Assembly: GCA_030390025.1 (NCBI GenBank)
Contig: CM059431.1
Coordinates: 132,248,001-132,312,000, forward strand
DNA: 64,000 nucleotides
Direction of reading: 5' to 3'
Source: Squalus acanthias
Taxonomy: Eukaryota
The notes under the pieces were generated by a model, which saw only the letters and a program-made list of their open reading frames with translations, searched no databases and was not told where the DNA came from. Below, in pieces: positions 4,706 to 64,000 of the stretch. The translations under genes and the position numbers were made by a program. Positions within the stretch are counted from its first letter, which is position 1. Every line of letters begins with the position of its first letter.

Positions 4706-5044
<339 letters not shown>

Positions 5045-8368: not shown

Positions 8369-8512
8369 GTTTTTCAAGGATGTGGCCAGCCTAAACCAAT
8401 GCCAGCTGGGCGTTTGACACGCTCCATTTCAGATAATTTTAACATAAGGTTCAGGTCCTACAGCCCTGAGGAGCGTCCAACTACAGCAGCTGGCACGAGT
8501 CTGGACAGACTG
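8369..8512 (+). CDS. GPC6: Glypican-6 internal coding exon (equivalent of human exon 6), 144 bp, phase 0 to phase 0; missed by the ORF track
   Basis: TTGTAG acceptor and CTG|GTGAGT donor. Translates [48 protein letters not shown], in frame with the previous exon. Contains the RxxR (RLTR) putative furin site and the [14 protein letters not shown] motif of GPC4/6. Confidence 0.93.
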
Positions 8513-9664: not shown

Positions 9665-11019
9665 TAAAGGTTTATAGTCTAGAAATGACTGTTGGTGATA
9701 TCAGCATACTTATGCTTAACAAATTCATGACGTTCCTCTGTTCATTATTTTTACACATTTTAATTAAGTTAACACCACTGATAAAATAACAAAGAGGACT
9801 GTGATGTAAATGCATTGAACATGTCCCATAATATCACCAACATATTAATCGAATTGGCAACTGAAAGAGTCAGTCCCTGTGACAGTTTAGTTGCCACAAA
9901 TGACATGCACTCCCTTCACTACTTGTTATTGATGCTTGACTTTGTTTAAGAATGATGTAAACTAATTTAAGATAAACTGTTAGTTGTACTGCAGGAAGCA
10001 TATGCCACATTTTCTGGGCTCATGAGAACTACTTTGTGATGTTACTATGGGAAAATCCAGTGAGATCTTGAGAAGAGTTGAATCTGGCTAAATTTGTGAA
10101 AATGAGTTTTGTGTTCATTGCGCATGCAAAGTACAATATGACATTTTTAACAAGATACAGTGATAATAAAATGTTAAAAGGATTCTTGGTTTAAAGGATA
10201 AGAAACTCATTGACTGCATTATTTTCTGATAATAAACTGGGGATTACCTTTTGATAAATTTGAGGTGATTACATGATGATTGTTAGTCCAGCTGCAGATA
10301 CCCTAGTGATTTCAGATGTTCATTATGGATTGCTTGGGCTTTGCTCCATGGTTTATCCAAGTCCTTTGATAAGATTATTGCTTCATAATCACACTTGAGT
10401 ATTCATAATACTTATATTATGTCTTGGGGAAAAAAAGGACCTATTTTCTTACATTGTATAATATCATAGTGCTCATTATGAATATTCATGGAGCCTCCTC
10501 CTCCCGTTGTTTAATGGTTCACCACCATTCACGACTGGATGTGGCAGGACTGCAGAGCTTTGATCTGATCCGTTGATTGTGGGATAGCTTAGCCCTGTCT
10601 ATAGCATGCTGCTTCCGCTTTTTAGCTTGCATGTAGTCCTGTGTTGCAGCTTCCCCAGGTTGGCACCTCATCCCCCCAATTGGTTGCCATCAATTCATGT
10701 CTTCCCGTTCATCATCACACAACTGAAAAGGCCACTTGCCAGCCAGCAACCAAGAATGGGCAAGGCGGAAAAGTGGTGCAAAAGAATAATATTTATGTGC
10801 TTCAAAAACACAACAGAAACTTAATAATATAACAATGTCTAACACACCCATGAGCATACCATTGTGCAACCACAAATCTTTACTCTTCCTTTTCCCAGCG
10901 CTTCTCCATGGTGCAACCCCTATGGCTTCAGCAGAGGTAGAGTCAGGCTGTTCAAATACCTGCTCTGATTGTTGAGTTGCTCTTGGCCATAAAATGCAAA
11001 TAGTATTCAGAATTTTATG

Positions 11020-17400: not shown

Positions 17401-17540
17401 CAGCACAGATTTAGCTTTCTAGAGGTTGCAAATGTTTCCAGCAAGGTCAGCATCCACTGTCACTTCATTGGTAGAACCTATCACACCATTGACAGATTGC
17501 TTGTGTCATCTCTACTTGACCTGCCATCTATTCCATCAGC

Positions 17541-18670
17541 ATGGGTGCTGTTTATACTGCCTCACCTTGGTCCTCAGAATCGGACCATGATGAGCCCCAA
17601 CACCAGCAGCACCAGGCACACCAGCAGCACCAAAAACAACGCCACCAACCTTCTCCTCAACCACCTGATGCTGCACAGGACAGAGGGCATCAGCGCAGGC
17701 TGCACCGTGCCAGAAGCGATACCCCCAACACAGGGTATACAGGCAGAGGATGAGTTTCCTCAAGTAACAGAGCAGCAGTGCCAAAGGAGGCTCAGGTTAT
17801 CGCGCCAGGTTGTCGCTGACATTTGCACATTGCTGGAGCAAGACCTGCAGCCCAGAGGAGGGGGTAGACACACATTACCAGTAGCTGTCAAAGTCACCAG
17901 CACCCTCAACATCTTCGTCTCAGGTTCCTTCCAGGGATCTGCAGCAGACATTTGCGGCATCTCGCGCCACTGATGAAGCCAGTGTTACTGAGCGGGTGCT
18001 CGGCTTTGCTGCTCTGGCTGTCTTCCCACGGGTGCAGGGGGTCATCGACTGCACACATGTGGCCATCAGGGCACCCCATCATCACCCAGGAGTCTTTGTC
18101 AACCGCAAGAGCATCCACTCCCTCAATGAGCAGCTCGTCTGCAATCATAGAAAGATCATCATACATGTCTGCACCAAATATCCTGGCAGCTGCCATGACT
18201 CCTTCGTCCTGTGCCAGTCCAGCCTCCCTCAGCTCTTTGCTCCTCCAAACAGACTTTTCGGCTGGCTGCTTGGAGACAAGGGCTATCCACTGAAGACGTG
18301 GCTAATGACACCCTTGAGGAGGCCAAATACTGAAGCCCAGGAGAGATATAATGATAGCCACATTTCCACCAGATGTGTCATAGAACAGACAATAGACATG
18401 CTCAAAATGCGCTTCAGATGCCTTGACAGATCTGGAGGAGCCCTTCTGTACGCACCAGCCAGGGTCTCCAGAATCGTCGTGGTCTGCTGTGCCCTGCACA
18501 ACATAGCGCAGCAGCAAGGATTAGCGCTGCAGGAGAAGCAAGGCACTGAGCGCACAGCCTCTTCAGAGGAGGAGGAGGAGGAGGAACCTGCCGTCCAGAT
18601 CCCACCAGCACCCGAGTATATTGCTGCCCGGGAGGCCAGGGGTGAACTCGTCATGTCCAGATTTACTTAA
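17541..18670 (+). pseudogene. Harbinger (HARBI1-like, DDE_Tnp_4) transposase of copy A, frameshifted
   Basis: Motifs FASGSFQ-like, [41 protein letters not shown]...[14 protein letters not shown]. About 74 bp is deleted near 17965 relative to copy B, plus other frameshifts. Confidence 0.92.
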
Positions 18671-20067
18671 CTTTATGCTGTACACCCATATGGCTGCAAC
18701 ATGCTGCTCCAGGTTCACACCACCCCACAGCAACACCATAAAGCATCCCTATAATGACCAAGCCATTCCTTTCACACTGACCACCATTGCTGGAGGTAAC
18801 GTTATGTCCCACCATTCACTCCAACTCACTAAGCCACTTCCAAAGCTGCACACAAATTTGTCCATGCCCGGAAAGTAGTGAAAATAAAGATTTTTATCTG
18901 TGACATCACAGTAACGGAAACTTTACAGAAACATTTAATAAAACACCCAAATGACTACCCTTGTGCATCTACTTGTGTTTCATCTTTCCCTTCTGCATGC
19001 TTCTACGAGGTGCTACCCCTGTGGCTTCAGCAGAGGTAGAGGCAGCCTGCTTACTTCCCTGCTGCGACTGCATAGACACTTTTGGTGGACGTCCTCTGGT
19101 CTTTGGGCCTGTGATGGCCCCGCCAAAGTCTGCTCCTCCTGCGACTGTGCAGGGGCAGACTCAGCCATCGCAATCTGGGGAGCCATTTGGGGCTCTGACA
19201 GGGGGGTGGGGGGCAACAGGGGAGAAGTGTGGGTGCTTTCAGAGGAGCCCCCACTTCCATGTCCCCTCTCACCATCATTCCTCTCATGGGCCATCCGAAC
19301 TTCCCTGCTAGCAAGGAGCAGAAGAGCACCTTGCTGCACAGCAGTGGGGCCATGAGGACCCACGTCTACGTTGACATCCCTCCTAGAGAGGAGGTCTATG
19401 AGCGTCTGACATCTATTCTCCATCGATAGCCATCTATTCTCCATAGATAATATGTGCTCCTGTGAGTGTTGCATTAGCTGCTCCATGCAGGTGGCCATCC
19501 TTTCCATGGAAGAGCCTGCAGTCGCCATTGCCTGTGACATGATGGTGTTCATGTTGGAGATGGACTCCTCCATTCTCTGGACATTTGCAGACATTGCGGT
19601 CGAAAAACCTGTCAAAGCCTCCTGCACTTCTTGCTGCACCTCCAGCATCGCCCTCTTTCTGGATGGCCCCGAGGCTCAGCGTCTGCATGCAGCTGAGCAG
19701 AGCTGGGAGCATCCTGTGCCCTCCAGCGAGGAGTCTCCACTGCTGTCCCTGTCTCCACCATCTGCTCTTGCTCACTTGTGACTTGTGAGATACCAGGTGA
19801 CAACACTACTCTATCTCGCATCGGACCCACCGAGGTGTGCGTATCTGCGCTGGTGCTGGGTGCGCTTATGTCTGGTGACGATGCGCCCTCAGAGGCTGGC
19901 GGCTGCTCTGAGGAGTCAGTTTCCTCTTCCTCCTGGACAGTGGGGACGGGGGCTCTTGATAGACCTGTGGGAGAGTAAAGAGATGAGTTAGATATGTCAT
20001 TTGAAGAATGGGTACAGATACCATTATGCACATAATGAACATTCACTGGCTGCAGACATCAGTTGCC

Positions 20068-22454
20068 ACATAGAAACATAGAAGATAGGAGCAGGAGTAG
20101 GCCATTCGGCCCCTCTAGCCTGGTCCGCCATTCAATGCGATCATGGCTGATCATCCAAATACAGAACCCTGTCCCTGCTTTCTCCCCATATCCCTTGATC
20201 CCTTTAGCCTTAAGAAATATATCCAACTCCTCCTTGAATATATTTAATGAATTGGCCTCTACTGCCTTCTGTGGTAGAGAATTCCACAGGTTCACCACTC
20301 TCTGGGTGAAGAAATTCCTCCTCATTTCTGTCCTAAATGGCTTACCCCTTATCCTTAGACTGTGACCCCTGGTTCTGGACTCCCCGACCATCGGGAACAT
20401 CCTTCCTGCATCTAGTCTGTCCAGTCCTTTCAGAATTTTATAAGTTTCAATGAGATCCCCTCTCATTCTTCTAAACTCCAGCGAGTATAAGCCCAATCGA
20501 CCCAATCTCTCCTCATACGTCATTCCTGCCATCCCAGGTATCAGCCTGGTGAATCTTCGCTGCACTCCTTCCATGGCAAGAACCTCCTTCCTCAGATAAG
20601 GCGACCAAAACTGCACACAATACTCAAGATGTAGTCTCACCAAGGCCCTGTACAACTGTAGCAAGACATCCTTGTTCCTGTACTCAAACCCTTTCGCTAC
20701 GAAGGCCAACATACCATTTGCCTTCTTAACCGCCTGCTGCACCTGCGTGCTTACCTTCAGCGACTGGTGCACAAGGACACCCAGGTCTCATTGCACTTCC
20801 CCTTCTCCCAATCTATTGCCATTCAGATAATAATCTGCCTTCCTGTTTTTGACACCAAAGTGGATAACCTCGCATTTATCCACGTTATATTGCATCTGCC
20901 ATGCTTCTGCACAATCACCCAACCTGTCCAAATCATCCTGGAGTTTCTCGGCATCCTCCTCACAGCACACACACCCACCCAGCTTTGTGTCGTCTGCAAA
21001 CTTGGAGATATTACATCTAGTTCCCTTGTCTAGATCATTAATATATATTGTGAATAGCTGGGGTCCAAGGACCGATCCCTGTGGTACCCCACTAGTCACT
21101 GCCTGCTACTCGGAAAATGACCCATTTATTCCAACTCTTTGCTTTCTGTCTGCCAACCAGTTCTCTATCCAAGTCAATACCTTGCCCCCAATCCCATGTG
21201 CCTTAACTTTACACGCTATCCTCTTATGCGGGACCTTATCGAAAGCCTTTTGAAAGTCCAAATACACCACATCCACTGGTTCTCCCTTATCTATTTTATC
21301 AGTTACATCCTCAAAAAATTCCAGTAGATTAGTCAAACACGATTTACCTTTTGTAAATCCATGTTGACTTTGTCCGATCCTGTCACTGTTTTCCAAGTGC
21401 TCTGCTATTACATCTTTTATAACGGACTCTAGCATTTTCCCCACTACCGATGTCAGGCTTACCGGTCTGTAACTCCCCGTTTTCTCTACCACCCTTTTTG
21501 AATAGTGGGGTAACATTAGCTACCCTCCAATCCATGGGTATTGTTCCAGATTCCATCGAATGTTGGAAGATGATCAGCAATGCATCTACTATTTCTAGGG
21601 CCACTTCCTTAAGTACCCTAGGATGTAGATTATCAGGCCCTGGGGATTTAACGGCCTTCAATCCCTTCAATTTCCCTAACACCATTTCCCTACAAATACT
21701 GATTTCTTTCAGTTCCTCCCTTTCATCAGACCCTATGTTCTCCAACATCTCTGGGAGGTTATTTGTGTCCTCCTTTGTGAAGACAGAACCAAAATATGTA
21801 TTTAATTGGTCTGCCATTTCTTTGTTCCCCATTATAAGTTCCCCTGATTCTGACTGCAAGGGACCTATGCTTGACTTCACCAATCTTTTTCTCTTCACAT
21901 ATCTATAAAAGCTTTTACAGTCAGTTTTTATGTTCCCTGAAAGCTTCCTCTCATATTCTATTTTCCCCTTCTTAATTAATCCCTTTGTCCTCCTTTGTTG
22001 AATCCTAAACTGCTCCCAATCCTCAGGTTTACTGCTTTTTCTGGCCTATTTTCTGCCCTCTCCTTGGATCTTATGCTATCCCTAATTTCCTTGTTAGCCA
22101 TGGTTGAGTCACCTTTTTTGTTTTATTCTTATGCCAAACTGGGATGAACAAATTCTGTAGTTTATGCGGTCTTTGAATGTTTGCCATTGCCTATCCACCG
22201 TCAACCCTTTGAGTGACATTCCCCAATCAGTCCTACCCAACTCGCGCCTCATACCATCGTAGTTTCCTTTATTTAAATTCAGGACCCTAGTCTCTGAGTC
22301 AACTACTTCACTCTCCATCTTAATGAAGAATTCTATCATATTATGATCGCTCCGACCCAAGGGGCCTCGCACAACAAGATTGCAAATTAATCCTTTCTCA
22401 TTACATAATACCCAGTCTAAGATGGCCTGCTCTCTGGTTGGTTCCTCGACATAT
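20068..22454 (-). mobile_element. 5'-truncated CR1 LINE (about 2.4 kb) nested in intron 2 of the Harbinger Myb gene
   Basis: Minus-strand ORFs 22109-22474, 21383-21898, 21106-21516, 20788-21099 and 20059-20772 form a frameshifted EN-RT ORF2 (SDHN, YRPVSLTS, GVPQGSVLGP, FADDTK). (TTTCTATG)n tail at 20068. Confidence 0.95.
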
Positions 22455-22755
22455 GAATGACTGCTGTATGCCATGTAGCTGTATGAGATGTAATTCTGTC
22501 ACCAGGTTGCTGAGATGCTCCCCTCTCCATCTCCCACCTCCAGCTGCTCTGCGACTCCTGACACTTCCAAGGCAACCTCCTTTGCTGCTGGTAAGGTGGC
22601 CAATGATGGAGGGTGACCTCCGGTTCTCTCCCTCTTATTGTGGGCTCTCTTTTCCTGCAAGGAGGGAAAGAAGAGAAGGTTGAGTGAGAGTGATGGAATG
22701 AGTGTAAGGAATGGATGGGTTACATCTTTAGAGGAAGACTATGATGGAGAGGGGT

Positions 22756-27401: not shown

Positions 27402-28323
27402 TAGAATCATAGAATGATACAGCACAGAAGGAGGCCATTCGGTCCATCGTGCCTGTGATGGCTCTTTGAAAGATCTATCCAATCAGTCCCACTCCCCTGC
27501 TCTGTCCCCATCGCCCTGCAAATGTTTCCCCTTCAAGCATTTATCCAATTCCCTTTTGAAAGTTACTATTGAATCGACTTCAACCACCCTTTCAGGCAGT
27601 GCATTTTAGATCATGATAACTTGCTGTGTTACATTTTTTGTACTCATGTCACTTCAGGTTCTTTTGCCAATTAACTTAAATCTGTGTCCTCTGGTTACTG
27701 ACCCTTCAGCCACTGGAAACAGTTTCTTCTTATTTACTCTATCAAAACCCTTCATGATTATGAACACCTCTATCAAATCTCCCCTTAACCTTCTCTGCTG
27801 TAAAGAGAACAGCCCCAGTTTCTCTAGTCTCTCCACATAACTGAAGTCCTTCATCCCTGGTACCGTTCTAGTAAATCTCCTCTGCACCCTCTCTAAGGCC
27901 TTGACATCCCTCCTAAAGTGTGGTGCCCAGAATTGGCCACAATAATCCAGCTGGGGCCTAACCAGTGATTTAAAAAGGTTTAGCATAACTTCCTTGCTTT
28001 TGTACTCTATTCCTTAATTAATAAAGACAAGGATCCAGTATGCTTTTTAAACAGCCTTCTCAACCTGTCCTGCCATCTTCAAAGATTTGTGTACACACCC
28101 CCCCAGGTGTCTCTGTTCCTGCACCCCCTTGAAAATTGTACCATTTAGTTTATATTGTCTCTCCTCATTCTTCCTACCAAAATGAATCATTTCACACTTC
28201 TCTGCGATAAATTTCATCTGCCATGTGTCTGGCAATTTCACCAGTCTGTCTATGTCCTCCTGAAGTCTGTTACTATCCCCTTCACTGTTTACTACATTTC
28301 CGAGTTTTGTATCATCTGCAAAC
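27402..28323 (-). mobile_element. CR1 3' fragment
   Basis: ORFs 27654-27986 and 28047-28241 carry CR1 C-terminal motifs. TAGAATCATAGAA tail. Confidence 0.9.
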
Positions 28324-28332
28324 TATACTGTT

Positions 28333-28880
28333 CCATAAATGTTCAAGTGATATCTAATCACAGAATCCTGATAGTACGCATTAATGCCCGTTATCCAAAC
28401 AGCACCCAAGATGCTTTTATTATGCAGCAGTCCATGATGCCCATATTATTTGAAGATCCCAAGAGAATGAACAGATGGCTCTTGTGAGACTTGGGCTACC
28501 ATTTGCATCCATGGCTGATGATCCCAACTAGAACACCCCACCCCCAACATAGCAGCAGAACGTAAGTGCAGTGAGGCCCATGAGACAATCCAAGTTATTG
28601 TGGAGCACACCATAGGAATACTGACATAGCAATTCCATTCTTTGGACTGCTCAGGCAAGCTGTTAATCTACAGTCCAGCGAAGGTTACAAAAATCATCAC
28701 TGCTGCATGCTACACAATCTTACCATTCAAATTACCATGCAGGACAAAGTGGGGGCCCAAGCAGGTGTAGAAACAGAGGAAGAAGATGAGGAAGAGGAGG
28801 TGGCTGATATGAAGAGAGCTGGTGTGCAGGCAAGCAGTCTGTGATGGAGAACTATATCCAGTAATGAACACGTCCTCCAA
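28333..28880 (+). pseudogene. Old Harbinger transposase remnant (different subfamily)
   Basis: Translates ...INARYPNSTQDAFIMQQS...WLL*DLGYHLHPWLM..., then VVEHTIGIL, CCMLHN and an acidic tail. Confidence 0.75.
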
Positions 28881-29171
28881 CTGAATAATTTTGTCTTTGC
28901 TCTGAAAACACACACATTGTGGCCCCAAAGAACATGCAGCACATTACCTCTTATTGGCAAGAGAGAGATGGCAGGTTAGCCTGAACCCTGGGAATGCTGA
29001 TGTGGTATAATGAAGCGTTCATTTTCAATGCATGTACAGAAACAGCTGCCAGTTGCCAACAGACATAACCAAGCAGGTCTCAGGTCATTTTAGACAACAG
29101 TTTAGAGAGTTTCAAATCCCTTCCTTCTTCACTATTATTTCTGTTAAAGTTGTAAATGAAAGATGATAACG

Positions 29172-31960
29172 ACATAGAATTATAGAGTCTACAGCACAAA
29201 AACGGGCAATTCGGCACAACTGGTCTATGCCAACGTTTATGATCCACACGAGCTTCCTCCCACCCTTCTTCATCTAACCCTATCATCATATCCTTCTATT
29301 CCTTTCGCCCTCATGTGCTTATCTAGCTTCACATTAAATGCATCTATGCAATTCGCCTCAACCACTCCCTGTGGTAGGGAGTTCCACATTCTCACCTCTC
29401 TCTGGGTAAAGAAGTTTCTCCTGAATTCCCTATTGGATTTATTGGTGACTATCTTATATTTATGGCCCCTAGTTTGGTCTCCCCCACAAGTGGAAACAGC
29501 TTCTCTACGTCTACCCTACCAAACCGTTTCGTGATTATGAACTCCTCTATCAAATATCATTACAAGACCTCTATCAGGTCACCCTTCAGCCTTATCTTTT
29601 CTAGAGAAAAGAACCCCAGCCTAGTCAGCCTTTCCTGATATGTATATCCTATCATTTCTGGTATCATCCTTCTGAATCTTTTTTGCGCCTTAGAATCATA
29701 GAATCATAGAAAGTTACAGCACGGAAGGAGGCCATTTCAGCCCATCGTGTCCGCACCGGCCAACAAAGAGCTATCCAGCCTAATCCCACTTCCCAGCTCT
29801 TGGTCCGTAGCCCTGCAGGTTGCAGCATCCCAAGTGCACATCCAAGTACTTTTTAAATGTGGTTACGGTTTCTGCCTCTACCACCCTTTCAGGCAGTGAG
29901 TTCCAGACCCCCACAACCCTCTGAGTGAAGAAATTTCCCCTCAAATCCCCTCTAAACCTTCCCCCAGTTACTTTAAATCTGTGCCCCCTGGTTTTTGACC
30001 CCTCTGCTAAGGGAAATAGGTCCTTTCTATCCACTTTATCTATGCCCCTCATAATTTTATACACCTCAAATCAAAACAGTACTCCCAAGTGTGGACTAAC
30101 CAAGGTTCTATAAATGTTTAACTTAATTTCTCTGCTTTTCAATTCTATCTCTCACGAAATGAACCCCAGTGCTTGGTTTGCTTTTTTTATGGCTTTATTA
30201 ATCTGTGTCGCTACTTTTAGTGATCTGTGTATCTGTACCCCCAGATCCCTTTGCTCCTTTACCCCATTTAGACTCTTCTTATCCAAGCAGTATGTGGCCT
30301 CCTTATTCTTCTTACCAAAATGTAACACTTATCTATATTGAAATTCATTTGTCAATTACTTACCCATTCTACAAGTTTATTAATGACTTCTTGTATTTTG
30401 TTGCAGTCTTCCTCAGTATTTACAATACCCCCAATTTGGTATCGTCTGCAAATTTTGAAATTGTACTTCTGATTCCCAAGTCCAAATCATTTATGTAAAT
30501 TGTGAACAATGGTGGTCCCAGCACCGATCCTTGTGTAATATCACTTCCCACCTTTTACCAATCTGAGTAGCTACCCTTAACTCCCACTCTCTGTTTTCTG
30601 TTCTGTAGCCAACTTGCTATCCATTCTGCTACTTGTCCCCTGACTCCACATGCTCTGACCGTAGTCATGAATCTACTACTTATCGAAGGCCTTTTGAAAA
30701 TCCAAATATATTTCACCTACTGCATTACCCTTGTCTACTCTTTCTGTTATTTCTTCAAATAATTAAATAAGGTAGGTCAAGCATGACCTTCGCTTTTGAA
30801 ATCCGTGCTGACTACTCTATTATATTGTATTTTCTGTTTTCAGATGTTTTTCTGTTACATCTTTGAGTAAGAATTCCATTATCTTTCCTACCACCGATGT
30901 TAATATAACTGGTCTATAGTTCTTGGAACTTAGTCTATCTCCCTTTTTAAATATAGGAATAACATTAGTTGTCCGCCAGTCCTCTGGCACTATTCCCTTT
31001 TCTAATGATTTATATATACATATATATATATATGTAATAGTTCCTTTGCTCGGATGCAATCCATCCGGATCAGGGGTTTTAACCTCTCTAAGTTTGATTA
31101 GGTTATGAATTATCTCCCCCTTTCTGTCTTAAATGTCTTTATATCTTTTTTGATCTCTTCTTCCAATGTGATGCCCACCTTGTTAGTCTCCCTGGTAAAT
31201 ACTGATGCAAATTAACTTTTCAGTATCTCTGCCATTTCACTGTCATTAGCTGTGTGTTTATTTTATACATCCCTTAATGGTCCTATCCCTATCATGATTT
31301 TTCTTTAGTTATTTATGTGTCTGTACAATACTTTACTATTTGTTTTTATATTCTTTGATAATTTAATTTCGTAGTTCCTCTTTGCTTTCCTAATTATTTT
31401 TTAATTACGTCTTTCCTAACCTCTTCGTATTTCCTTTTATCATCCTCTCCTTTATTGTCCAAGTACTTAGTGTATGCCTTGTTCTTTAGTTTCGATTTTA
31501 CCCTTACCTCTTTATTCATCCATAGTGTTTCATTATTGGCTAGTTTGCTCTTGTTTTTTAGTGGAATATATTTCTCCTGAACTCTGTTGATCACAATTTT
31601 AAATATTTCCCACTGCTGTTCTATCTATTTGTCTATCAAAACATTTTTTCCAGTTTACCTTCCCTAGTTCCATTCTCATCCCTTCAAAATTAGCTTCTTT
31701 CCAATCTATTACTTGTTCCTTGTCTTACCTATGTCTTTCTCAACCATTAGTTTAAACCATATTATGTTATGATCACTATTGCCTCGATGTTCCCCTACGC
31801 TTACTTCTTTATCTGCTCTCGTTCATTTCCCATTGCTAGATCCAGCAGTGATTCCTCCCTTGTTGGGCTTCTTACATATTGGGTAATAAAGGAGTCCTGA
31901 ACACATTGCAAAAACTCCATTCCCTCTTGCCAGTTTATTTGGAGGTAATTGAAATTTCCC
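29172..31960 (-). mobile_element. Degenerate CR1 (about 2.8 kb) containing a nested younger CR1 3' piece (about 29691-30068)
   Basis: Minus-strand CR1 motifs (VPEDWRTTNVIPIFKKG...NYRPVILTSVVGK). A second (TAGAATCA)n tail at 29691 marks the nested copy. Confidence 0.85.
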
Positions 31961-31961
31961 A

Positions 31962-33003
31962 GGCTGGCAGGCTGTAACTAGTGGGGTACCGCAAGGATCA
32001 GTGCTGGGGCCTCAGCTATTCACAATCTATATCAATGACTTAGATGAGGGGACCAAATGCAATGTATCCAAGTTTGCTGATGATACAAAGCTAGGTGGGA
32101 ATGTAAGTTGTGAGGAGAATGCAAGGAGGCTTCAAGGGGATATAGGCAAGCTAAGTCAGTGGGCAAGAACATGGCAAATGAATATAATGTGGAGAAATAT
32201 GAAGTTATCCACTTTGGTAGGAAAAATAGAAAAGCAGAGTATTTTTTAAATGGTGAGAGATTGGGAAATGTTGGTGTTCAGAGGGACCTGGGTATCCTTG
32301 TACACGAATCACTGAAAGTTAACATGTAGGTACAGCAAGCAATTAGGAAAGAAAATGGTATGTTGGCCTTTATTACAAGAGGATTTGAGTATAAGAGTAA
32401 AGACGTCTTAGCGCAATTATATCGGGCCCTGGTGAGACCACACCTGGAATATTGTGTGCAGTTTTGGTCTCCTTATCTAAGGAAGGATATACTTGCCATA
32501 GAGGGAGTGAAACGAAGGTTCACCAGACTGATTCCTGGGATGGGGGGATTGTCCTGTGAGGAGAGATTGAGTAGACTAGGTCTATATTCTCCAGAGTTTA
32601 GAAGAATGAGGGGTGATCTCATTGAAACATATAAAATTCTTACAGCGCTTGACAGGGTAGATGCAGGGAAGATGTTTCCCCCTGGCTGGGTTGTCTAGAA
32701 CCAGGGGTCACAGTCTCAGAATAAGGGGTCGGCCATTTAGGACTGAGATGAGGAGAAATTTCTTCACTCAGAGGGTGGTGAATCTTTGGAATTCTCTACC
32801 CCAGAGGGCTGTGGAAGCTCAGTCGTTGAGTATATTCAGGACAGAGATCGATAGATTTTTGGATATTAAGGGAATCAAGGGATATGGGGATAGTGCAAGA
32901 AAGTGGAGTTGAGGTTGAAGATAAGCCATGATCTTATTGAATGGTGGAGCAGACTTGCGGGGCAGAATGGCCTACTCCTGCTCCTATTTCTTATGTTCTT
33001 ATC
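31962..33003 (+). mobile_element. CR1 3' fragment abutting the previous CR1 in the opposite orientation
   Basis: ORFs 32001-32249, 32360-32698 and 32661-32912 ([30 protein letters not shown]). TTCTTATGTTCTT tail. Confidence 0.92.
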
Positions 33004-44100: not shown

Positions 44101-44882
44101 GATGACCTGGGCATTGCAGTCATTTAAACTGAGGGGGAGATCCCTCCAGAAGATGCACTCAGTCTGAGTCTTCCAAGCACCAGCACAGAAATCAGTACCA
44201 TATGGCACAGAGAGGGGGGTCTGAGCACCAGTGAGCAGGAGCAGGAGCATGTGGAAAGAATGGCCCAGGAAACAACTCACCAGACCACCAGCTCGCATCC
44301 TAGCTCTGCTGAAGAGGACAAAGATACAGGCCAGAATTTTCTGGCGTCCGTGCGGGCGCGATTGAAGGCTGGTTGGAAGGGAAGTTTGAAAAACCTTAGA
44401 GCGGGTTGGGAAGCCGCCGTCATCCCACCATCATCCCACGTGCCTTTCCCTCAGGTGCGTTTGCCAGTGCAGCAGCGACCCAAACGGCAGAGGCGGCCAA
44501 GGTAATTGAGATCATCATGAAGTACTTGTCAGACCCTTAAGCCTCTTTCTCACCCTACCTTTCAAATTTCCCTGGATGAGCACGGGAATTACGCAGCTCA
44601 GGAACCATGTCTGTGAACCTGAGGCGGAAGTTGAGTGGCCATTCACCCACCTCAATAATGCACAGCATGAAAAGTGCAATAAAAACTCCCACCTGACAGC
44701 TGATCACTTTCCTAAGGCACATGCTGTTGCTGATTGCATTGTCAGCACAGATTTAGCTTTCGAGAGGTTGCAAGTGTTTTCAGCAAAGTCGGGATCCAGT
44801 GTCACCTCATTGGTAGAACCTATCACACCATTGACAGCTTGCTTCTGTCATCGCTACTTGACCTGCCATCTATTCCATCAGC

Positions 44883-46098
44883 ATGGGTGCCATTTATACT
44901 ATCTCACCTTGGGCCTCAGAATTGGACCACGATGAGCCCCAATACCAGCAGCACCAGGCACACCAGCAGCACCAACAACACCACCAACATTCTCCTCAAC
45001 CACCTGATGCTCCACAGGACAGAGGGCATCAGCGCAGGGCTGCACCACGCCGGAGGCGATACCCCCAACACAGGGTATACAAGCAGAGGATGAGCTTCAA
45101 CAACATGACGGAGCAGTAGTGCCAAAGGAGGCTCAGGCTATTGCGCCAGGTCATCTCAGACATTTGCAGATTGCTGGAGCAAGACCTGCAGCCCAGAGGA
45201 GCGGGTGGACACGCCTTACCACTGGCTGTCAAAGTCAGCAGCACTCTCAACTTCTTTGCCTCAGGCTCCTTCCAGGGATCTGCAGCAGACATTTGCGGCA
45301 TCTCGCAGTCGGCCACCCACAGATACATTGCACAGGTCACCGATGCCCTGTTTGACAAGTCAGTCAATTATATCAACTTTGCCACTGATGAAGCCAGTGT
45401 TACTGAGCGGTTGCTCAGCTTTGCCACTCTGGCTGGCTTCCCATGGGTGCAGGGCATCATCAACTGCACACATGTGGCCATCAGGGCACCCCATCATCAC
45501 TCTGGAGTCTTTGAGGGAGTGGAAGCCCTTGCAATTCACAATGTGCAGCTCATCTGCAACCATAGTAAGATCATCATGCACGTGTGCGCCAAATTTCCTG
45601 GCAGCTGTCATGACTCTTTCATCCTGCGCCAGTCCACCCTCCCTCAGCTCTTCGCTCCTCCAAACAGACTTTCCAGCTGGCTGCTTGGAGACAAGGGCTA
45701 TCCACTGAAGACATGGCTCATGACACCCTTGAGGGGGCCAAGTACTGAGGCTGAGGAGAGATATAATGAAAGTCACACTTCCACCAGATGTGTCATAGAG
45801 CAGACAATAGGCATGCTGAAAATGTGTTTCAGATGCCTTGACAGATCTGGAGGAGCCCTCCAGTATGAATCAGCCAGGGTCTCCAGAATCATCATGGTCT
45901 GCTGCGCCCTGCACAACATAGCGCAGCAGCAAGGATCAGCGCTACATGAAGAGCAAGGCTCATCAGATGAGGAGTAGGAGGAGGAGCAGGAGCAGGAGGA
46001 GCATCAGCTGGAAGATGAGGAGGAGCAGGGGGAACCTGCGGTCCAGATCCCACATTGTTGCCCGGGAGGCCAGGGGTGACCTCATCATGGCCAGATTT
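44883..46098 (+). pseudogene. Harbinger transposase of copy B
   Basis: ORFs 44883-45119 and 45141-45977 are in the same frame, separated by one stop. The first catalytic Asp is changed (INCTH); GDKGY and VIEQT are retained. Confidence 0.92.
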
Positions 46099-46186
46099 TA
46101 TGCATTACACCCATATGGATGCCACAAGCTGCGCCAGGTTGGCACCACCCCATAGCAACACCATAAAGAACCCCTACAATGACCAA

Positions 46187-46892
46187 AATGAGAAGTCGCA
46201 CAACACCAGGTTATAGTCCAACAGATTTATTTAATTTTACAAGCTTTCGGAACAGTTCGCTCCTTCGTCAGGTAAGTTAGCAGTGAGAGAATCTCCCAGA
46301 ATTCACAATTTAAACACAGACAAAATATATTCAAATCTTTCCCTACATCAAAGAGCATAGCCAAGGCAATGAGATGTGTCCCAGGCATTCAGCCTCGGAT
46401 ATGCGGGTAAGCGTTCTCCAAGGCGGCCTTCGAGATACACAACAGCGCAAAATCATAGAGCAGAAACTGATAGCCAAGTTCCGCACTCATGAGGATGGCC
46501 TCAATCGCGATATCGGGTTCATGTCACGATACAGGACGTGACTTGACATCATGGCCGGTCTTCCCAGGTGTTTTTTTTTAAAAAGACTAACACAAGAACC
46601 TACACAGATTGACAGGATATGCAGCCAGCAGGTGGTTTGACACGTTGGACCCCCTGGGACACATCTCATTGTCTTGGCTATGCTCTTTGATGTAGGGAAA
46701 GATTTGAATATATTTTGTCTGTGTTTAAATTGTGAATTCTGGGAGATTCTCTCACTGCTAACTTACCTGACGAAGGAGCGAACTGTTCCGAAAGCTTGTA
46801 AAATTAAATAAATCTGTTGGACTATAACCTGGTGTTGTGCGACTTCTCATTTTTGTCCACCCCAGTCCAACGCCGGCATCTCCACATCATGA
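46187..46892 (+). mobile_element. Penelope-like retroelement insertion: inverted pLTR + GIY-YIG C-terminus + pLTR + tail
   Basis: 46386-46541 encodes HSASDMRVSVLQGGLRDTQQRKIIEQKLIAKFRTHEDGLNRDIGFMSRYRT*, the R...E..I...T...GLN end of PLE GIY-YIG endonucleases. 201-bp inverted arms at 46185-46385 and 46653-46853. Direct repeat CCTACAATGACCAA at 46173-46186 and 46893-46906. Copy A is uninterrupted at this site. Confidence 0.88.
46761..46835 (+). ncRNA. Hammerhead-ribozyme-like motif in the PLE terminal repeat (mirror copy on the minus strand at about 46203-46277)
   Basis: CTGACGA (46767-46773), then stem II GGAGC/GAACT/GTTCC, then GAAA (46790-46793) overlapping the palindrome AAGCTT. Minimal hammerheads are a known feature of PLE pLTRs. 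Stems I and III are not confidently assigned. Confidence 0.55.
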
Positions 46893-49800
46893 CCTACAAT
46901 GACCAAGCCATTCCTTTCACACTGACCACCATTGCTGAAGGTAACGTTATGTCGCACCATTCACTCCAACTCACTAAGCCACTTCCAAAGATGCACACAA
47001 ATTTGTCCAGTGGTGAAAATAAAGATTTTTATCTGTGACATCACAGTAATGGAAACTTTACAGAAACATTTAATAAAACACCCAAGTGGCTACCCTTGTG
47101 CATCTACTTGTGTTTCATCTTTCTCTTCCGCGTGCTTCTATGAGGTGCTACCCCTGTGGCTTCAGCAGAGGTAGAGGCAGCCTGCTCACTTCCCTGCTGT
47201 GACTGCATAGACACCTTTGGCAGACGTCCTCTGAGTTTTGGAGCCTGTGATGGCCCCGCCAGAGTCTGCTCCTCCTGCAATGTGCAGGGGCAGACTCGGC
47301 CATCTTGATCCGAGGAGCCATCTGGGGCTCTGACTGGGGGGAGGGAGCGTTTTGAGATGAGCCCCCACTTCCTCCTGTGAGTCCTGTGAGGCTGGGAGAC
47401 CAATTGTACAGATCCTTCAATTAGATCATGGATATCCTACACTCTCCTGTGTACCAGGGGCAGTCATGCAATGGGGATGTAACATGAAGCCATCTCTTAG
47501 GATGATAGCACGTCTGCACCCTTGCCATCCCTGAACCAATGCCTGCCCTGGTGCCAGAATGTCAGCAGATATTAAGCTGCTGTAGTCTGAAGCCAGGCCT
47601 GCTCAGGTCAGCGGCCACACGCATCCCAAGAAAAGTTGACTGAGTCACAGTAGCCTGCCACCTCTCACGCTGCAGCCATTAGGAGAGCACCTCATAGGAG
47701 CACTACAGTAGGTAAGGTAGCACTTAAGGGAAGTACTAGAGGCTCGCACAAGGGCAAGAATTACTGTGTAGGCATTTGTATAAGGCTGTAAAATTATAAT
47801 ACTTTCTGAAATCTTTGTATGGAGAGAGTTGTTCCTGTAATAGCTGATGACCCTGCAATGTTAGTTGACGTGAATATCAGTGTGGGTCTTTAGGCATATG
47901 CAGCTTTCGAGGGCAGAAGGACTCAAATAGACTTTGGACATAACTGTTGATGTAGGGGAGCAGGGGTTGTTTAGCTGCAGCACTCTTCAGTGAGCTGCTG
48001 CTGAAGAACTCTGACTGCAGGCAATTGTTGGACCCCTCCCACTTTCTTACCATCCTCTATATCATCAGTGTTGTCTCCCTCATCAAACTGAAGATCCTTG
48101 CCCAATGGTGGCTCCATGTGTTGTACTCATTGCAGAACAAAGTTATGCAGCATAAAGCAAATCACTATCATGCGGGACACTCTTTGTGGGCTGTATTGCA
48201 GTTTACCACCAGTCCTCCCCAAGCATCAGAATTATTGCTTGAGGACTCCAATCACTTGACAAAGGATCTAGTTAACATGGATGTGATTATAGTGCAATCC
48301 AGCTGCAAAGCATGGGTTCCTGATTGGAGTCATGAGCCAAGTGTGCAGGGCGTAGCACTTATCTCCAAGCTGCCAGCCTCTCACTTGCTCTGCTGTTTCA
48401 AAGAGTGGGGGGGATGGAGGATTGCCCATGGCAACTGTCAGGAAAGTGGGCACAGACCTACATGATACATTGCTGGTGATCACACACCAGTTGCCCATTA
48501 ATGGAGTGGAGGTTCTTGGGAGCAGACAATGATACCCTGGACTTGGAGGAATGCTTGCTGGCGAAGAGAACTATCATTGCCTAATGTGAGCAATTGCTTG
48601 TCAAGTACACAAGCACAAAGGATGGTACAGTCATCACATCTCTGTTTCATTCTAACTATGTATTGAGGCCTGTGAATGTGAAAAGCTTAGATGGATCAGA
48701 CATCAAATTACACAACACTGTTAACAGCTGAACTGTTAACTTGAGATTAGCTCATGGAATAGCTTGGTGAATTTTGCTTTTTCCAATTTGGAAGTCATGA
48801 GTACAGAAAGTTATAAACTGGTGTATGCTTAAACTTGGAGGAATCCTGCAATCTGTGCGAACCCTAAACTCATATCATGTTGTTTTCGGCATTTGGCAAA
48901 TTCCTGAATGGGGAAGGAGTTAGAGGTCCCACCCTTCCACTTCCTGTAAATACTCAGAGAATATAGACAAAGAGACTCATAGGAGGTCACTCAGGTTCAT
49001 CGGAATCCTGCCCGAACCCGGCCAGGTGTAATACCTGGCCGGTGGGCAAGAGCATAAGAGTACAGGCAGGAGCCCACAGCCTGGGACCCACAGCATCAGT
49101 CCTCAGCAGTCAGGTAAGTGGTTGGGGGGGCAAGGGGGAAAAGACAATTGGGGGGGCGAAACCCAGGGTAAGGAAGGCCCCAGGCTTCCTAGTGAGGCCT
49201 GGAGGAGCAATGCTCCTGTTGGCCCAAAAGGAAACCTAAAAATAAATGTTAAAACTTACCTCCTGGGCCGCTTGTGGCCCACAATCCACCACTTGAGAGG
49301 TTTGGCCTGACGGGGAAGCTGTCACCGCTTCTCCCGCTCAGGCCTTGGACTAAAATTGCAGTTCGAGTCCCGATGACATCATTGGGAGCCAATCTGCAGA
49401 GTTAAAACAGGACCCGCTGCCTTCCTGCGGGTGTCCTGCTCACCTGCTCAAAAGAGCAGATTAGTATTCGGACCCGATGGCAAGGCCGCAGGATTGGCGG
49501 GGGTAAGTTGTTCCCCTCATTTTAACTGCCTCCTTGCCCGGTTTCCACCAGACAGAGGGAGTTAAAATTGGGGTCTGTGAGTTATAGGCCCAGGCCTAGA
49601 GTAGAGGCTAAAATGCAGGAGATTAGTGTTTGCAGTCAGGCATTTGGAATGGGACAAATTTGGCATTTTCAACAGTCAAGCGGCAGAATGATTCACAATG
49701 AGTCCAAATAAGACTTGAATTTATTTGAGGACTATTTATTCTTATAAGAAAGCTATTGAAAATAGAATGGATCTGAAGTTCACCAAAGACTATAGACATT

Positions 49801-58769: not shown

Positions 58770-59614
58770 GTTATCTATGTTACATTCAAGCAGACTATGT
58801 TACTGTTCTTTCCAAAAAATGGAATATCTTTAAATCGAATTATGTTTGATATATGTAATTCTGCACCCCAAGGATTTCAGGTTTTAAGTTTTTATGCAGT
58901 TATATAATCAGTTGAAGAGATAAAATTAACTTCAAAGTTGCGTTTGTCATCATCAACAGCGCTTATTCAAGCCATTGCTGTGAGAATGCATCTTTAGATC
59001 TGTTTACCACTGAGAAATTGCTGAACTTCAGCACACTGGATTGTCGTCAAAGCTGACAGTTGAACCAATACTACGGCCGCGATTTTGCCAGTGCTCAGAG
59101 GGCGGATTTGGAGGCGGGTCAGGTGTTAAATTCAAAATGATTGACGGCGGGTTGGGAACCCGCTGCGAACCCGCCTCCACGCCAGTTTCGAAAGTGTCAG
59201 GTCTGCGCCTTCAGACCAGACCTGACACCAAGTGACTGGAGAGGCACTTAAGATAGTTAACAGTTTTTTAACTCCTTGTTAATTGCTATTTTGCCAGGCT
59301 TATTCCATTTTCACACATTTTCAACGTGTTTCACGTCGTTCGGCAAACACGCCAGCTGAGTGTGTCGGGTCTTCCAACGAGCTGAATAGTTCACAGCTGC
59401 AACTGCTGCATAAAACCTAACCTATCACATCAGGTCACTTTCAAATGCCCGAAGTTGCTGAATTCATGATTTGGAGGACACCTTTGAGCTGTATTGAAGT
59501 TGTAAGTGTGTGCTGTGAACTCTATACGCACTGTCACCTCCTCGGAATAAGCTCTCTCCCCACTGACTTACTCCTGATAACATCTCATCCTCAATTGCCA
59601 TATATAACAGCAGA

Positions 59615-60848
59615 ATGGGAACCATTTCTACTCTCTCATCCTGGTCCTCATATTCAGAAGAGGATCATCCATGGCAGCAGCAGAGCCAGGCACAGCAGCA
59701 GCACCAATAACAAGAGCGCCAACCTTCTCCTCAGCCGTCGGATGCTGCACAGGGCGAAGGCCATCAGCGCTGGGCTGGCCCGCGCCGCAGGAGATACCCC
59801 CAACACAGGGTTTACAGGCCGAGGATGAGCTGCCTCAACATGAGTGAGCAGCACTGCCAAAGGAGGCTGAGACTTTCGCGAGAGGTAGTCGTAGACATTT
59901 GCACAATGCTGGACCAAGACTTGCAGCCCAGAGGAGCGGGTGGACACGCCTTACCAATGGCTGTCAAAGTCACCACTGCACTCAACTTCTTTGCGTCAGG
60001 GTCCTTCCAGGGATCAGCAGCAGACATTAGCGGCATCTCCCAGTCGGTCGCCCACAGATGCATCACGCAGGTTACCGATGCCCTCTTTGCAAAGTCCATC
60101 AATTACATCCACTTTTCAACTGATGAAGCCAGTGTTACTGCATGGGCGCTAGACTTTGTCAATCTGGCTGTCTTCCCACGGGTGCAAGGCGTCATCGACT
60201 GCACCCATCTGGCCACCTGGGCACCCCATCACAACCCAGCAGTATTTGTGAACCGCAAGGGCTTCCACTCCCTTAATGTGCAGCTGGTCTGCAACCAAAG
60301 GAAGAGCATCATGCATGTGTGCGCAGAGTACAGCTGCCATGACTCTTATATCCTGCGCCAGTCCACTGTGCCTCAGCTCTTCACACTGCCAACGACCTTT
60401 CCGAATGGCTCCTTGGAGACAAGGGCTATCTCCTGAAGACGTGGCTAATGACGCCGATGAGGAGGCCATCAAACGAGTCTGAGGAGCGCAACAATCAAAG
60501 CCACATTTCCACCAGAAGTGTAATAGATAACACAATAGGGTTGCTCAAAATGCACTTCAGATTCCTGGACAGATCTGGTGGAGCCTACAGTACGCACCAG
60601 CCAGTGTCTCGCGAATCATCGTGGTCTGCTGTGCCCTGTACAACATCGCACTGCAACGGGGATTAGCGCTGCCTGCGGAACAGGTGGCAGAGCGCACAGC
60701 CTCTTCAGAGGAGGAGGAGGAGGAAGAGCCGAATGAGGCTGCAGATGAGGAACTCCTGGAGGAGGCGGCTGACCCAGTGCGACCAGCACGCGAGCACATT
60801 GCTGCCCGTCAGGCAAGGGATGGCCTAATCCATGGCAGATTCAACTAA
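59615..60848 (+). pseudogene. Harbinger transposase of copy C
   Basis: ATG at 59615 is in frame with ORF 59825-60436 (one stop between them). Motifs [39 protein letters not shown]. Frameshifts in the 3' half. Confidence 0.92.
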
Positions 60849-61134
60849 CTTTAGGCATCACAGACATGTGGCTGCCACATGCACATGACAGTTCGCATGA
60901 CCCCACTTCTACATCATAGAGCAGCCCTACAATGAACTGTGTATTCCTAGCTCTTTCACCACCATTGCTTCAGATGAAAGGTGCCCTCACCACTTCCTGT
61001 GCCACTTCCAATTGTGAACACACATAGGGCAACGCATTGAAACATTCACAAGACATTACTTTAATACAATAAAATAAAAGAACACAAACATTACACTGAT
61101 TTATATGAAAGCACCCAAGTGACTACCCTTGTGA

Positions 61135-63016
61135 CTATTTATGCGTTAGCTTTCTCTTATGTGTGCTTCTGCGTGGTGCTCCCCCTGTGGCTTCAGCAGA
61201 TGCAGAGGCAGCCTGCTCACTTCCCTGCTGCACCTGCTTAGACGCCTTTGGTGGTCATTCTCTGGGTCTTGGAGCTTGAGAGGGCCCCGCCAAAGTCTGC
61301 TTTTCCTGGGGCTGTGCAGGGGCAGACTCAGCCATCTCTGTTGGGGGAGGCATCTGGGGCTCTGACCGAGGGGTTGGCAATGGGGTGGTAGTGTGAGTGC
61401 TTGGAGAGGAGCCCCACTTCCATTTCCCCTTCCACCACCATCCCTCTCATGGGCCACCCGCACTTCTCTGCTAGCAAATTTCTGGAGAGCACCTTGCTGC
61501 ACATCAGTGGGGCCATGAGGACCCGTGTCTGTGCTGACATTCCTCATAACAAGGATGCCCATGAACCTCTGGTTTCTGTCCTCGATAGATGCCCATCGAT
61601 CCTCCATAGCTGACCATTGATTTAGAAGTGTTACCATGTTCTCCTGAGTCTGGCGATTTATGTCCTCCATGGAGGTTGCCATCCTTTCCATGGCAGGACC
61701 TACATTTGCCAGTGCCTGCACCATGATGCTGCTCATATTTGAGATGGACTCCTCCATTCTCTGCATACTCGCAGTCACCGTGGTTGCTTACCCAGTCAGA
61801 GCCTCCTGCACTTGTTTCTGAAGCACCAGCATCACTTTCTCTATGGATGGCCCCAGAGGCTCAGCGTCTACATGCAGTTGAGCAGAGCTGGGAGTGTCCT
61901 GCAGCTTCTGATGAGGATGCTCCACTGCTGTCCCTGTCTCCACCATCTGCTTTTGCCCACTAGTGAGTTGTGAGACAGACACCAGGTGACAACACTACTC
62001 TATCTCACGTTGGACCCACAGAGGTGTGCATCTCTGCGCTGGTGCAGGGTGCGCTAATTTCTGCTGACATTGCTCCCTCAGAGGCTGGACAGTAAGGAGG
62101 GGGGGCTCTTGATGGTCCTGTGGGAGAGTAAAGACATGAGTTAGACATGTAATAGGTAGGTTGCAGACACATCCCATTGTGCACATAATTAGCACTCAAT
62201 TTCGAGGAACATCAGATCCTATATGAGTCACTCCTGAATGCCAAATCAGATGTTTGGAAAATAATTCTGTCACCAGGTTGTTCGACTGAGCCCGTCTCTC
62301 CGTCCCCCACTTCAAGCTCCTCAGCACCTCCAACAATGTCTAGAGCTGCCTCCTCAGCATGGGTGAGCTGTGCCACCGATGGTGTTCCTCCTCCTGTTCT
62401 CTCCCTCTCCCTCTTACTGTGGGATCTCTTTTCCTGCACGGTGAGACAGAAGTGCAGTTTTAGTGAACCTGATGGAATGAGTGTAAAGAATGGATAGGAT
62501 AGATGCTCGAGGCAGACTGTGATGGAGTGAGGTGCCAATACCAATTTCCTTCCTTGTGAGTTGTTAGTTGTTGTCATTGTATAACATTGAGAGTTAGTGT
62601 GAGGGGTGCATAGAAAGATGGGGATGTGATTCTGTACATAGGGAGAGAGGGATGGGTGACAGTGCAAGGGATGTTGGGGTGAGTTAGGATGTGCAGGAAT
62701 AGGGTTGGAAATGCTGAGTAATGGGGATGTGAAGACAGGCACAGTAGAATGAAGGTAAGTTTGCTGTTATACTCATTTTTGCTGAACGCAGGAGATCATT
62801 GAACCTCTTTCTACACTGGACCCAGGTGCATGTACAGATAGACCTCACACTCACCTCCTCAGCTATTTGCAGCCAGGCTGCCTTGGTGTGCTGAGGAGGC
62901 TTCCTCCTTCCATCAGAAGGGAACAGTACCTCCTTACGCCCTCTTACTCCCTCCACAAGAACATGGAGGGAGTCATAGTCGAAACGGGGAGCAGCCTTTG
63001 TTCTAGGTGCAGTCAT
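61135..63016 (-). pseudogene. Myb/SANT-like gene of copy C; exons 63016-62777, 62433-62274, 62117-61135
   Basis: Exon 1 (240 bp, same length as in copy A) reads MTAPRTKAAPRFDYDSLHVLVEGV...AWLQIAEEVS...TWVQCRKRFNDL. The donor is mutated to ATGAGT. Exon 2 reads EKRSHSKRERERTGGG. Exon 3 is frameshifted and ends in a basic tail (RRSTHKRKLTHK*). Confidence 0.87.
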
Positions 63017-64000
63017 CTCGGCAAACAGCAGCACTCCGGAGCATCAAAATGTAATTGAAAGCCAAAGGGGACACGGCCCCCTTAAATACAGCAGCTTCAA
63101 ATGCGTCATCACAGGCGAGCAGCAGACCCACACACACTGATTGGGCCGGGTAACGCGCACAGCGGGTTTAATAAGCCCAATCTACTCAAAAATCGTTAGC
63201 GCAGAGCGGATGGAACCGGGAGCGGGTCCGGAACCCGCCAAACACCTAACCTGACGTCTGTTCCACTTTTTTCCACAATTACAGGAAAGTGTTTTGTACA
63301 ATTGACAGAAGCTATGAACAGCTTGGCCATCAAACCAGAATAACTATGAATAACCAGCAAGATGCTTTGAGTCATACCTAATTACTGTTGCACCCAGACA
63401 TTTACTGAAAAGCACGATCGCTTTGGTAACATCTCCCGATGACTGTGAGGCATTGCAGAGTTTATGTCAGTCACCCTTTTAATGGGGAATGGCCCCTGTG
63501 AACGGAATTTCAATTTTTAAACGTTTCCTGGTGCTCAGTGAAAGCATAAATGTGAACTGGTTGTGGATAACTTGAAACAATTAGCCGTTATTTCTGGTTC
63601 ACTTAGGTTGGCACACAAGACAGGAACATGTTCGTGACTGCTGACTAGTCTAATGAAGTTCACATCTGTACAGTTTGACACAGGGGTGCATTTTTCCACT
63701 TCCAAAATCTGCTAGTGACAGCTTTATTCTTTGATGAGTCAAAATGGCCAGACGATCAGAGGTGCAGAGCTGAAGAACAAGACCCCAGACTCTCTTTAGT
63801 GACGTATTGAAGAAAAGTTTCCACAGACCTTCAGATTCCACAGCTTATTAATTAGACTGACAGAACCACCTGTCCTTCTACCCTAGAACAAGTACAAGTG
63901 ATGTAATGGGAATAAGGTATTGATGTCTGTCTATGGGTTATGTGCGTTACTTCAGATTCTTCTACAAAGAATACAATCAAGACCATTATAGTAAATGTTT

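Follow-up and report, generated by a model that had tools for sequence, protein, structure and literature searches.

A truncated Penelope-like retrotransposon with an inverted end forms a hairpin within a Harbinger transposon of Squalus acanthias

A short segment of the Squalus acanthias genome contains a nearly perfect hairpin lodged in another transposon, and it raises the question of how such a structure arose and whether it serves the host. We analyzed a window of 64,000 nucleotides (contig CM059431.1 of assembly GCA_030390025.1), and all positions below refer to this window. Positions 46185–46385 and the reverse complement of 46653–46853 differ by a single mismatch in 201 bp (46366 vs 46672), precisely where the original prediction had placed two arms with one mismatch. 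This pair of arms yielded an E-value of 4e-100 in the self-BLAST of the window; among the 12 inverted pairs listed, the next best showed 85% identity and a separation of 27 kb. The hairpin unit is predicted to fold at -447 kcal/mol (z -39), a value equaled by none of 20 shuffled sequences. Immediately outside this unit lies an exact 14-mer direct repeat, as had also been claimed, with 706 bp of inserted DNA between its copies. We annotated these copies as the left and right target-site duplication (TSD; 46173–46186 and 46893–46906, both on the + strand), the left one sharing its last 2 bases with the arm.

The 267 bp between the arms contain a + frame that ends at a stop codon (46539–46541). 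This frame encodes 75 amino acids, the first 24 codons of which come from the inverted arm; the element-derived peptide begins at 46386. The element's ORF accordingly ends here with its last 51 codons and the stop (46386–46541, +), which correspond to the C-terminus of a GIY-YIG endonuclease beyond the YIG motif. After the stop, 111 bp of unduplicated non-coding element sequence (46542–46652, +) are also enclosed by the arms and are covered by family contigs of sequencing runs X1 and X5. The prediction that the arms enclose a stop-terminated GIY-YIG C-terminus therefore stands, with the start of the peptide and the additional non-coding segment as refinements. Next comes the sense copy of the element 3′ end, or pLTR region (46653–46853, +), followed at the right end only by a tail of 39 bp (46854–46892, +; 67% A+C), where an unpaired tail of about 40 bp had been expected. 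The inverted pLTR (46185–46385, -) is a 5′-truncated copy of the same 3′ end without the tail (200/201 relative to the reverse complement of the sense copy). A weak stem-loop was predicted for the last 67 nt (-13.4 kcal/mol, without shuffle control). Self-BLAST revealed no second copy of the element within the 64-kb window, and no RT part of a Penelope-like element (PLE) was found within the window.

The peptide 46386–46538 matched 19 of 25 candidate proteins, and all 11 species-named matches came from sharks. Its best relative, P0001 (643 aa), is identical at 44 of 49 positions across residues 594–642, which form its C-terminus. P0001 carries RVT_1 above cut-off, a YIDD motif, a CX4CxxC linker and a YLI...YIG motif, and the likeness of the fragment to this shark RT and GIY-YIG protein supports the predicted identity of the element and, indirectly, a single ORF with RT plus GIY-YIG at its C-terminus. 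Pfam GIY-YIG matches were obtained for four of the seven relatives scanned (one above cut-off) and at E<=0.01 for none of the other three (P0001, P0009 and P0010). The window peptide gave no Pfam GIY-YIG match, only a chance one to MbeB_N (E 0.17), because the fragment lies downstream of the motif. The Scyliorhinus protein P0019, which reads through the 3′ end of a copy, matches the 3′ part of the pLTR region up to the arm end (10/16) and then, contiguously, the tail (10/10 codons), which indicates that the tail belongs to the element. Upstream of 46386, family contigs continue in frame with codons of the parent ORF (21 in X1 and 14 in X5), and this fixes the truncation point at 46386. The homology between the parent ORF and the inverted arm at this junction is 0–2 nt.

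At the sequence level, these similarities establish a PLE origin for the peptide, the pLTR region and the tail, and the element is almost certainly an endonuclease-positive (EN+) Penelope-like retrotransposon. The CX4CxxC linker was present in four of the five relatives examined and lies outside the fragment found in the window. Linkers of this type mark Neptune and Nematis PLEs (PMC8557442), and vertebrates are reported to harbor Neptune PLEs (bioRxiv 10.64898/2026.07.22.740005). The relatives resemble both groups in combining this linker with a C-terminal GIY-YIG. The Neptune-clade CX2-5CxxC linker between RT and EN is present in them but is common to Nematis, and the parent family would be Neptune-type by a linker that does not separate Neptune from Nematis.

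The insertion lies in a Harbinger-type DNA transposon, copy B (44329–47345, +; DDE_Tnp_4, E 5e-34), whose extent was defined by similarity to another copy in the window, copy A. The transposase frame of copy B spans 45120–45977, and the PLE was inserted approximately 200 bp past its stop. By sequence, the direct target is the Harbinger inter-ORF region. A third copy, copy C, has a Myb/SANT partner frame. The left and right flanks of the insertion both align to copy A and join there at 18748–18761 (+), where the 14-mer is single and carries one substitution. Contigs of the Harbinger family likewise run from 46893 directly into the left flank (43 in X1, 32 in X5, 37 in X6 and 63 in X9). Copy A thus shows the empty site, as predicted, and so do family contigs.

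On a larger scale, the insertion is 37.7 kb downstream of a glypican exon. Two such exons were identified upstream of it: one of 131 bp bounded by AG/GT (4830–4960, +; PF01153, E 8.5e-14) and the next of 144 bp (8369–8512, +; PF01153, E 7e-7), with best matches to glypican-6-like proteins of a skate and a ray. These best matches fall within the GPC6 clade of a tree of 15 proteins, a tree that comprises proteins other than the window exons. Over both exons, the identities were 81–82 with GPC6-type proteins of skate, ray, white shark and chimaera, 75 with a GPC6-clade protein of the epaulette shark, 74 with the two chondrichthyan GPC4-clade proteins that have both exons full-length, and 79–80 with frog GPC4. 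From these comparisons, the host gene is best named GPC6, though not with certainty. The exons match skate, ray, shark and chimaera about equally, and although all named matches of the peptide are sharks, the sequence by itself points no further than to a cartilaginous fish. No downstream glypican exon was found within the window. The next exon lies outside the window, and the insertion is probably in an intron of a GPC6-type gene; of the predicted GPC6 intron, the two upstream exons support GPC6 as the most fitting gene name, and the intron itself is presumed. Approximately 30% of whale-shark PLEs are reported to be intronic (bioRxiv 10.1101/443036), which makes such a placement unremarkable.

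We compared positions 46340–47240 with contigs from four of 24 sequencing runs (X1, X5, X6 and X9). The proportion of words found was 0.81 in X1 and 0.70 in X5, and neither run need represent the assembled individual. The PLE family is very abundant, with thousands of matching contigs. Contigs at least 99% alike represented 27% in X1 (5472/20325), 32% in X5 (5285/16279), 10% in X6 and 8% in X9, in counts that include the Harbinger flank; summed contig depth does not equal copy number. Only two of the sites listed, 46441 and 46786, differ from more than 90% of the family depth. The letter at 46786 is shared with its partner in the other arm, 46252, and is absent from 94% (X1) and 97% (X5) of the family depth, which suggests that both arms derive from one source lineage. 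At 46847, 152 contigs of X9 depart from the element and run on in long unlike sequence (median 255 nt, agreement 0.44); many copies ending near the pLTR end would produce such a pattern. No family-wide end at 46892 was present among the loose ends listed, and none of the matches listed spans any of the three junctions of the locus. No contig covered the bin 46340–46370 in any of the four runs, nor 46588–46742 in organisms B and D (runs X6 and X9); such holes in contig data count neither for nor against an artefact, a polymorphism or lineage specificity.

The single mismatch between the arms provides an approximate age. At a mutation rate of 7e-10 per generation, taken from the epaulette shark (PMC10587355), it corresponds to 3.6 million generations (95% range 0.09–19.8 million), and it gives no age if it is due to a copying error. 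The insertion, predicted to be young, can be called so only relative to its family; its absolute age spans the wide range just given. The further claim of a recently active family is likewise weaker than originally put.

Each arm also contains a candidate ribozyme. In a motif scan, positions 46763–46801 (+) matched the minimal type I hammerhead, here a putative ribozyme with features as reported in PMC4209133, and its mirror copy was identified in the inverted arm at 46237–46275 (-). The former presents a 4-bp helix I, a CUGACGA core at 46767, an extra A and a 5-bp helix II, and GAA with a palindromic AGCU replaces helix III; the predicted cut is after 46797. Scanning both strands of the 64 kb returned three sites: one in each arm and a third, weak one with 3 pairs. 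Rfam at E<=5 gave five matches, all below gathering and none of them a hammerhead, and shuffled sequences folded as well as the isolated motif did (z 0.5 to -1.6). The putative hammerhead is thus called from motif and context. When the two copies were co-folded, pairing was predicted through the AGCU region, which is no test of activity. Metazoan PLEs are reported to have min-HHR pairs on opposite strands, 100–700 bp apart, whose monomers showed no cleavage in vitro (PMC4209133). The motif resembles these min-HHRs in its short helix I, the extra base between positions 9 and 10.1, the G-C closing pair, the palindromic 15.2–16.2 and the lack of helix III; it differs from those described there in a helix II of 5 bp with one G-U pair and in having no same-strand dimer partner within the window. 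We also considered a non-LTR retrozyme, with tandem direct units that each carry a hammerhead, and rejected it: the motifs are on opposite strands and there is no direct tandem.

This layout is largely that of published EN+ PLE units. A typical PLE insertion is described as an inverted 5′-truncated copy with a tail of 30–40 bp at one end (PMC8557442, PMC3846280). The locus presents an adjoining inverted 5′-truncated copy, an element-derived tail at one end without poly(A), a hammerhead motif in the pLTR and, as an optional feature, a TSD with an empty site. As in the Pen2a unit of Adineta vaga (PMC3846280) and the general scheme (PMC8557442), an inverted truncated pLTR on the 5′ side is followed by the ORF end, the pLTR and the tail, with one TSD around all. 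Unlike the rotifer units reported in PMC3846280, it retains only 51 ORF codons, lacks an upstream direct pLTR, has a TSD of 14 bp instead of 8–10 bp (9 bp in Pen2a, with a 31-bp tail) and shows no junction palindrome. The 5′-truncated PLE copy with an inverted end that had been proposed agrees with this standard. The existence of the hairpin is confirmed; it is, however, an ordinary truncated PLE remnant with an already published layout. The textbook status of the whole layout, tail included, had gone unmentioned in the original prediction, as had the hammerhead motifs and the Harbinger inter-ORF target.

With good confidence, we interpret the locus as a dead-on-arrival, truncated EN+ PLE insertion in a Harbinger copy, with the hairpin as a by-product of integration. 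Dual priming from both target nicks is the mechanism that we infer, and we consider it moderately probable. Nicks made by the GIY-YIG enzyme in the two target strands would lie 14 nt apart, and reverse transcription would be primed from each of the 3′ ends. From the bottom-strand nick, synthesis would start at the tail's outer end (46892) and proceed for 507 nt; from the top-strand nick, it would start at the pLTR end (46853), 39 nt away, and proceed for 201 nt. This second start may have been aided by the target: five of six bases at the end of its top strand agree with the template at the pLTR end, a likeness noticed post hoc. The two truncated cDNAs would then be joined head to head with 0–2 nt of homology. 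The departures of X9 contigs at 46847 and the primer match both fit this scheme. An anole PLE protein, Poseidon PAc, is reported to nick and extend both strands, with reverse transcription beginning at two internal sites on either side of the tail, and a dimeric form is predicted for it (PMC11167929). The locus resembles PAc in its two termini with an AC-rich 30–40 nt tail between them. The nicking and extension of both strands reported for PAc would here be deduced from the sequence, and PAc differs in belonging to the Poseidon clade, with a mechanism described in vitro (PMC11167929), whereas the element studied here would be Neptune-type by the linker of its relatives. Our literature search, outside of which most subscription papers fell, returned no title on twin-priming inversion in PLEs and, among the matches listed, no title describing a shark PLE family of this kind. 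In L1 twin priming, both target ends prime and an inversion results inside one TSD, and the 3′ end is not known to be duplicated. The present locus differs in that both cDNAs start within 39 nt, yielding a 201-bp duplex.

Alternatively, the same PLE insertion might have acquired its inverted arm when one nascent cDNA or antisense template folded back to prime itself, or when a template switch took place on it. This is the main rival to dual priming, and it is a possible but less probable one. Head-to-head geometry and junction palindromes have been read in this way for rotifer Penelopes (PMC3846280), and a rare letter common to both arms fits a single template; this shared variant, however, would fit dual priming, fold-back copying or later gene conversion equally well. 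No palindrome is found at the junction, 267 bp separate the arms, and the arm and the parent ORF have at most 2 nt in common. Fold-back copying also predicts neither that the arm should stop where many X9 copies end nor the five-of-six match to the target end. An explanation by a MITE or foldback DNA element with a captured PLE piece, or by two PLEs inserted independently into the same site, is highly improbable. Long inverted repeats inside one TSD do resemble TIRs, but the right repeat ends 39 bp inside the terminus and not at the TSD, and PLE sequence in native order makes up the arms, the loop and the tail. Two insertions are further opposed by the one TSD around both halves and by the rare variant common to the arms. 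Equally improbable is an assembly artefact, which we reject on anatomy and not on reads. Such structures are reported to trouble assemblers (PMC8557442), and no contig crosses the inversion junction among the matches listed. The mirror is nevertheless imperfect and leaves out the tail and the flank, whereas a chimeric read would be expected to extend the mirror into the flank, and the arm abuts a TSD whose empty site is found in a paralog and in 32–63 contigs per run.

The last alternative concerns function. If transcribed, the locus would form the 201-bp duplex on a transcript of either strand. The hammerhead would be trapped in this duplex, its bases being paired to the mirror arm with a predicted p>0.99, which makes it unlikely that the host pre-mRNA would cut itself. 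A duplex in a nuclear intron is more likely to be a substrate of ADAR than of Dicer. In a chimaera brain sample, 200,171 hyper-edited sites were reported, 81% of them in repeats, and self-folding repeats are described as strong ADAR targets in the frog (PMC5625713), which makes passive ADAR editing plausible. Of the ADAR or Dicer substrate originally suggested, the duplex is predicted, and in GPC6 pre-mRNA it would likely be a passive substrate of ADAR. It could further be supposed that the hairpin was co-opted as a regulatory dsRNA for GPC6, acting on editing, splicing or small RNA, as would be allowed by the very high predicted stability of its duplex in the sense transcript of the gene and by the edited repeats of chimaera and frog. 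We consider this very unlikely: the hairpin sits within another transposon, with the nearest known exon 37.7 kb away, thousands of contigs match its family, intronic PLEs are commonplace in the whale shark, and editing would not prove function. The hairpin is very probably devoid of any selected host role.

This single locus means little, being one among very many truncated copies. It is nonetheless a clean specimen of how PLEs finish integration, with an empty site, both termini and a rare arm variant. A broader reading can be proposed only tentatively and is itself rather doubtful: the two ends would record in vivo priming at two fixed start sites in a Neptune-type PLE, every such inverted arm would act as an inbuilt antisense strand, trapping the hammerhead whichever way the host is transcribed, insertions would thereby be tolerated in introns, and this very abundant chondrichthyan family would constitute a major source of near-perfect 200-bp dsRNA for ADAR. 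If there are indeed two start sites, a count of termini across the family bears on the late steps of PLE integration. The abundant family would supply thousands of cases on the formation of inverted ends, and it would let the contribution of hairpins to A-to-I editing in cartilaginous fishes be tested.

A single presumed intron contains three Harbinger-type copies that all point the same way: copy A (16992-20045), copy B (44329-47345), which carries the truncated Penelope-like (PLE) insertion, and copy C (59496-63043). Their mutual similarity by self-BLAST is 74-91%. The DDE transposase is on the + strand and a Myb/SANT frame, in copy C, is on the - strand. Additional Harbinger-type fragments were found at approximately 10840-10971 and 48318-48378. 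Within the transposase of copy B, about 30 bp (45511-45541) are in flipped orientation relative to copies A and C, to which the reverse complement of this segment matches at 27/34 and 28/31 aligned positions, respectively. Short inverted motifs are present at the borders of the flipped segment, across which the transposase frame is uninterrupted.

The same gene contains several LINE reverse transcriptase fragments in both orientations (regions 884-2279, 20062-22498, and 27402-33002), one of which yielded an RVT_1 match at 21109-21519 (E = 3e-17). We presume from their motifs that these fragments are CR1-like. Among the inverted pairs listed, those formed by LINE fragments are longer than the pair of PLE arms, yet their identity is only 64-85%.

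Near the end of the sense pLTR region of the PLE, several contigs of X9, a sequencing run of organism D, link 46846-46847 back onto 46806-46817, and one contig with this joint has a depth of 1019. These joints may indicate that the PLE end occurs there as a short fold-back or tandem structure. The tail of the insertion closes with an ATG (46889-46891), which could be the start codon of the parent PLE ORF.

Finally, pieces of the PLE endonuclease end were observed in annotated shark proteins (P0002, P0015, P0018, P0006, and the Scyliorhinus read-through protein P0019), whose annotations include XRCC5, FAM210B, FAM204A, and septin 5a isoforms. These pieces represent either gene-model errors or exonised copies.
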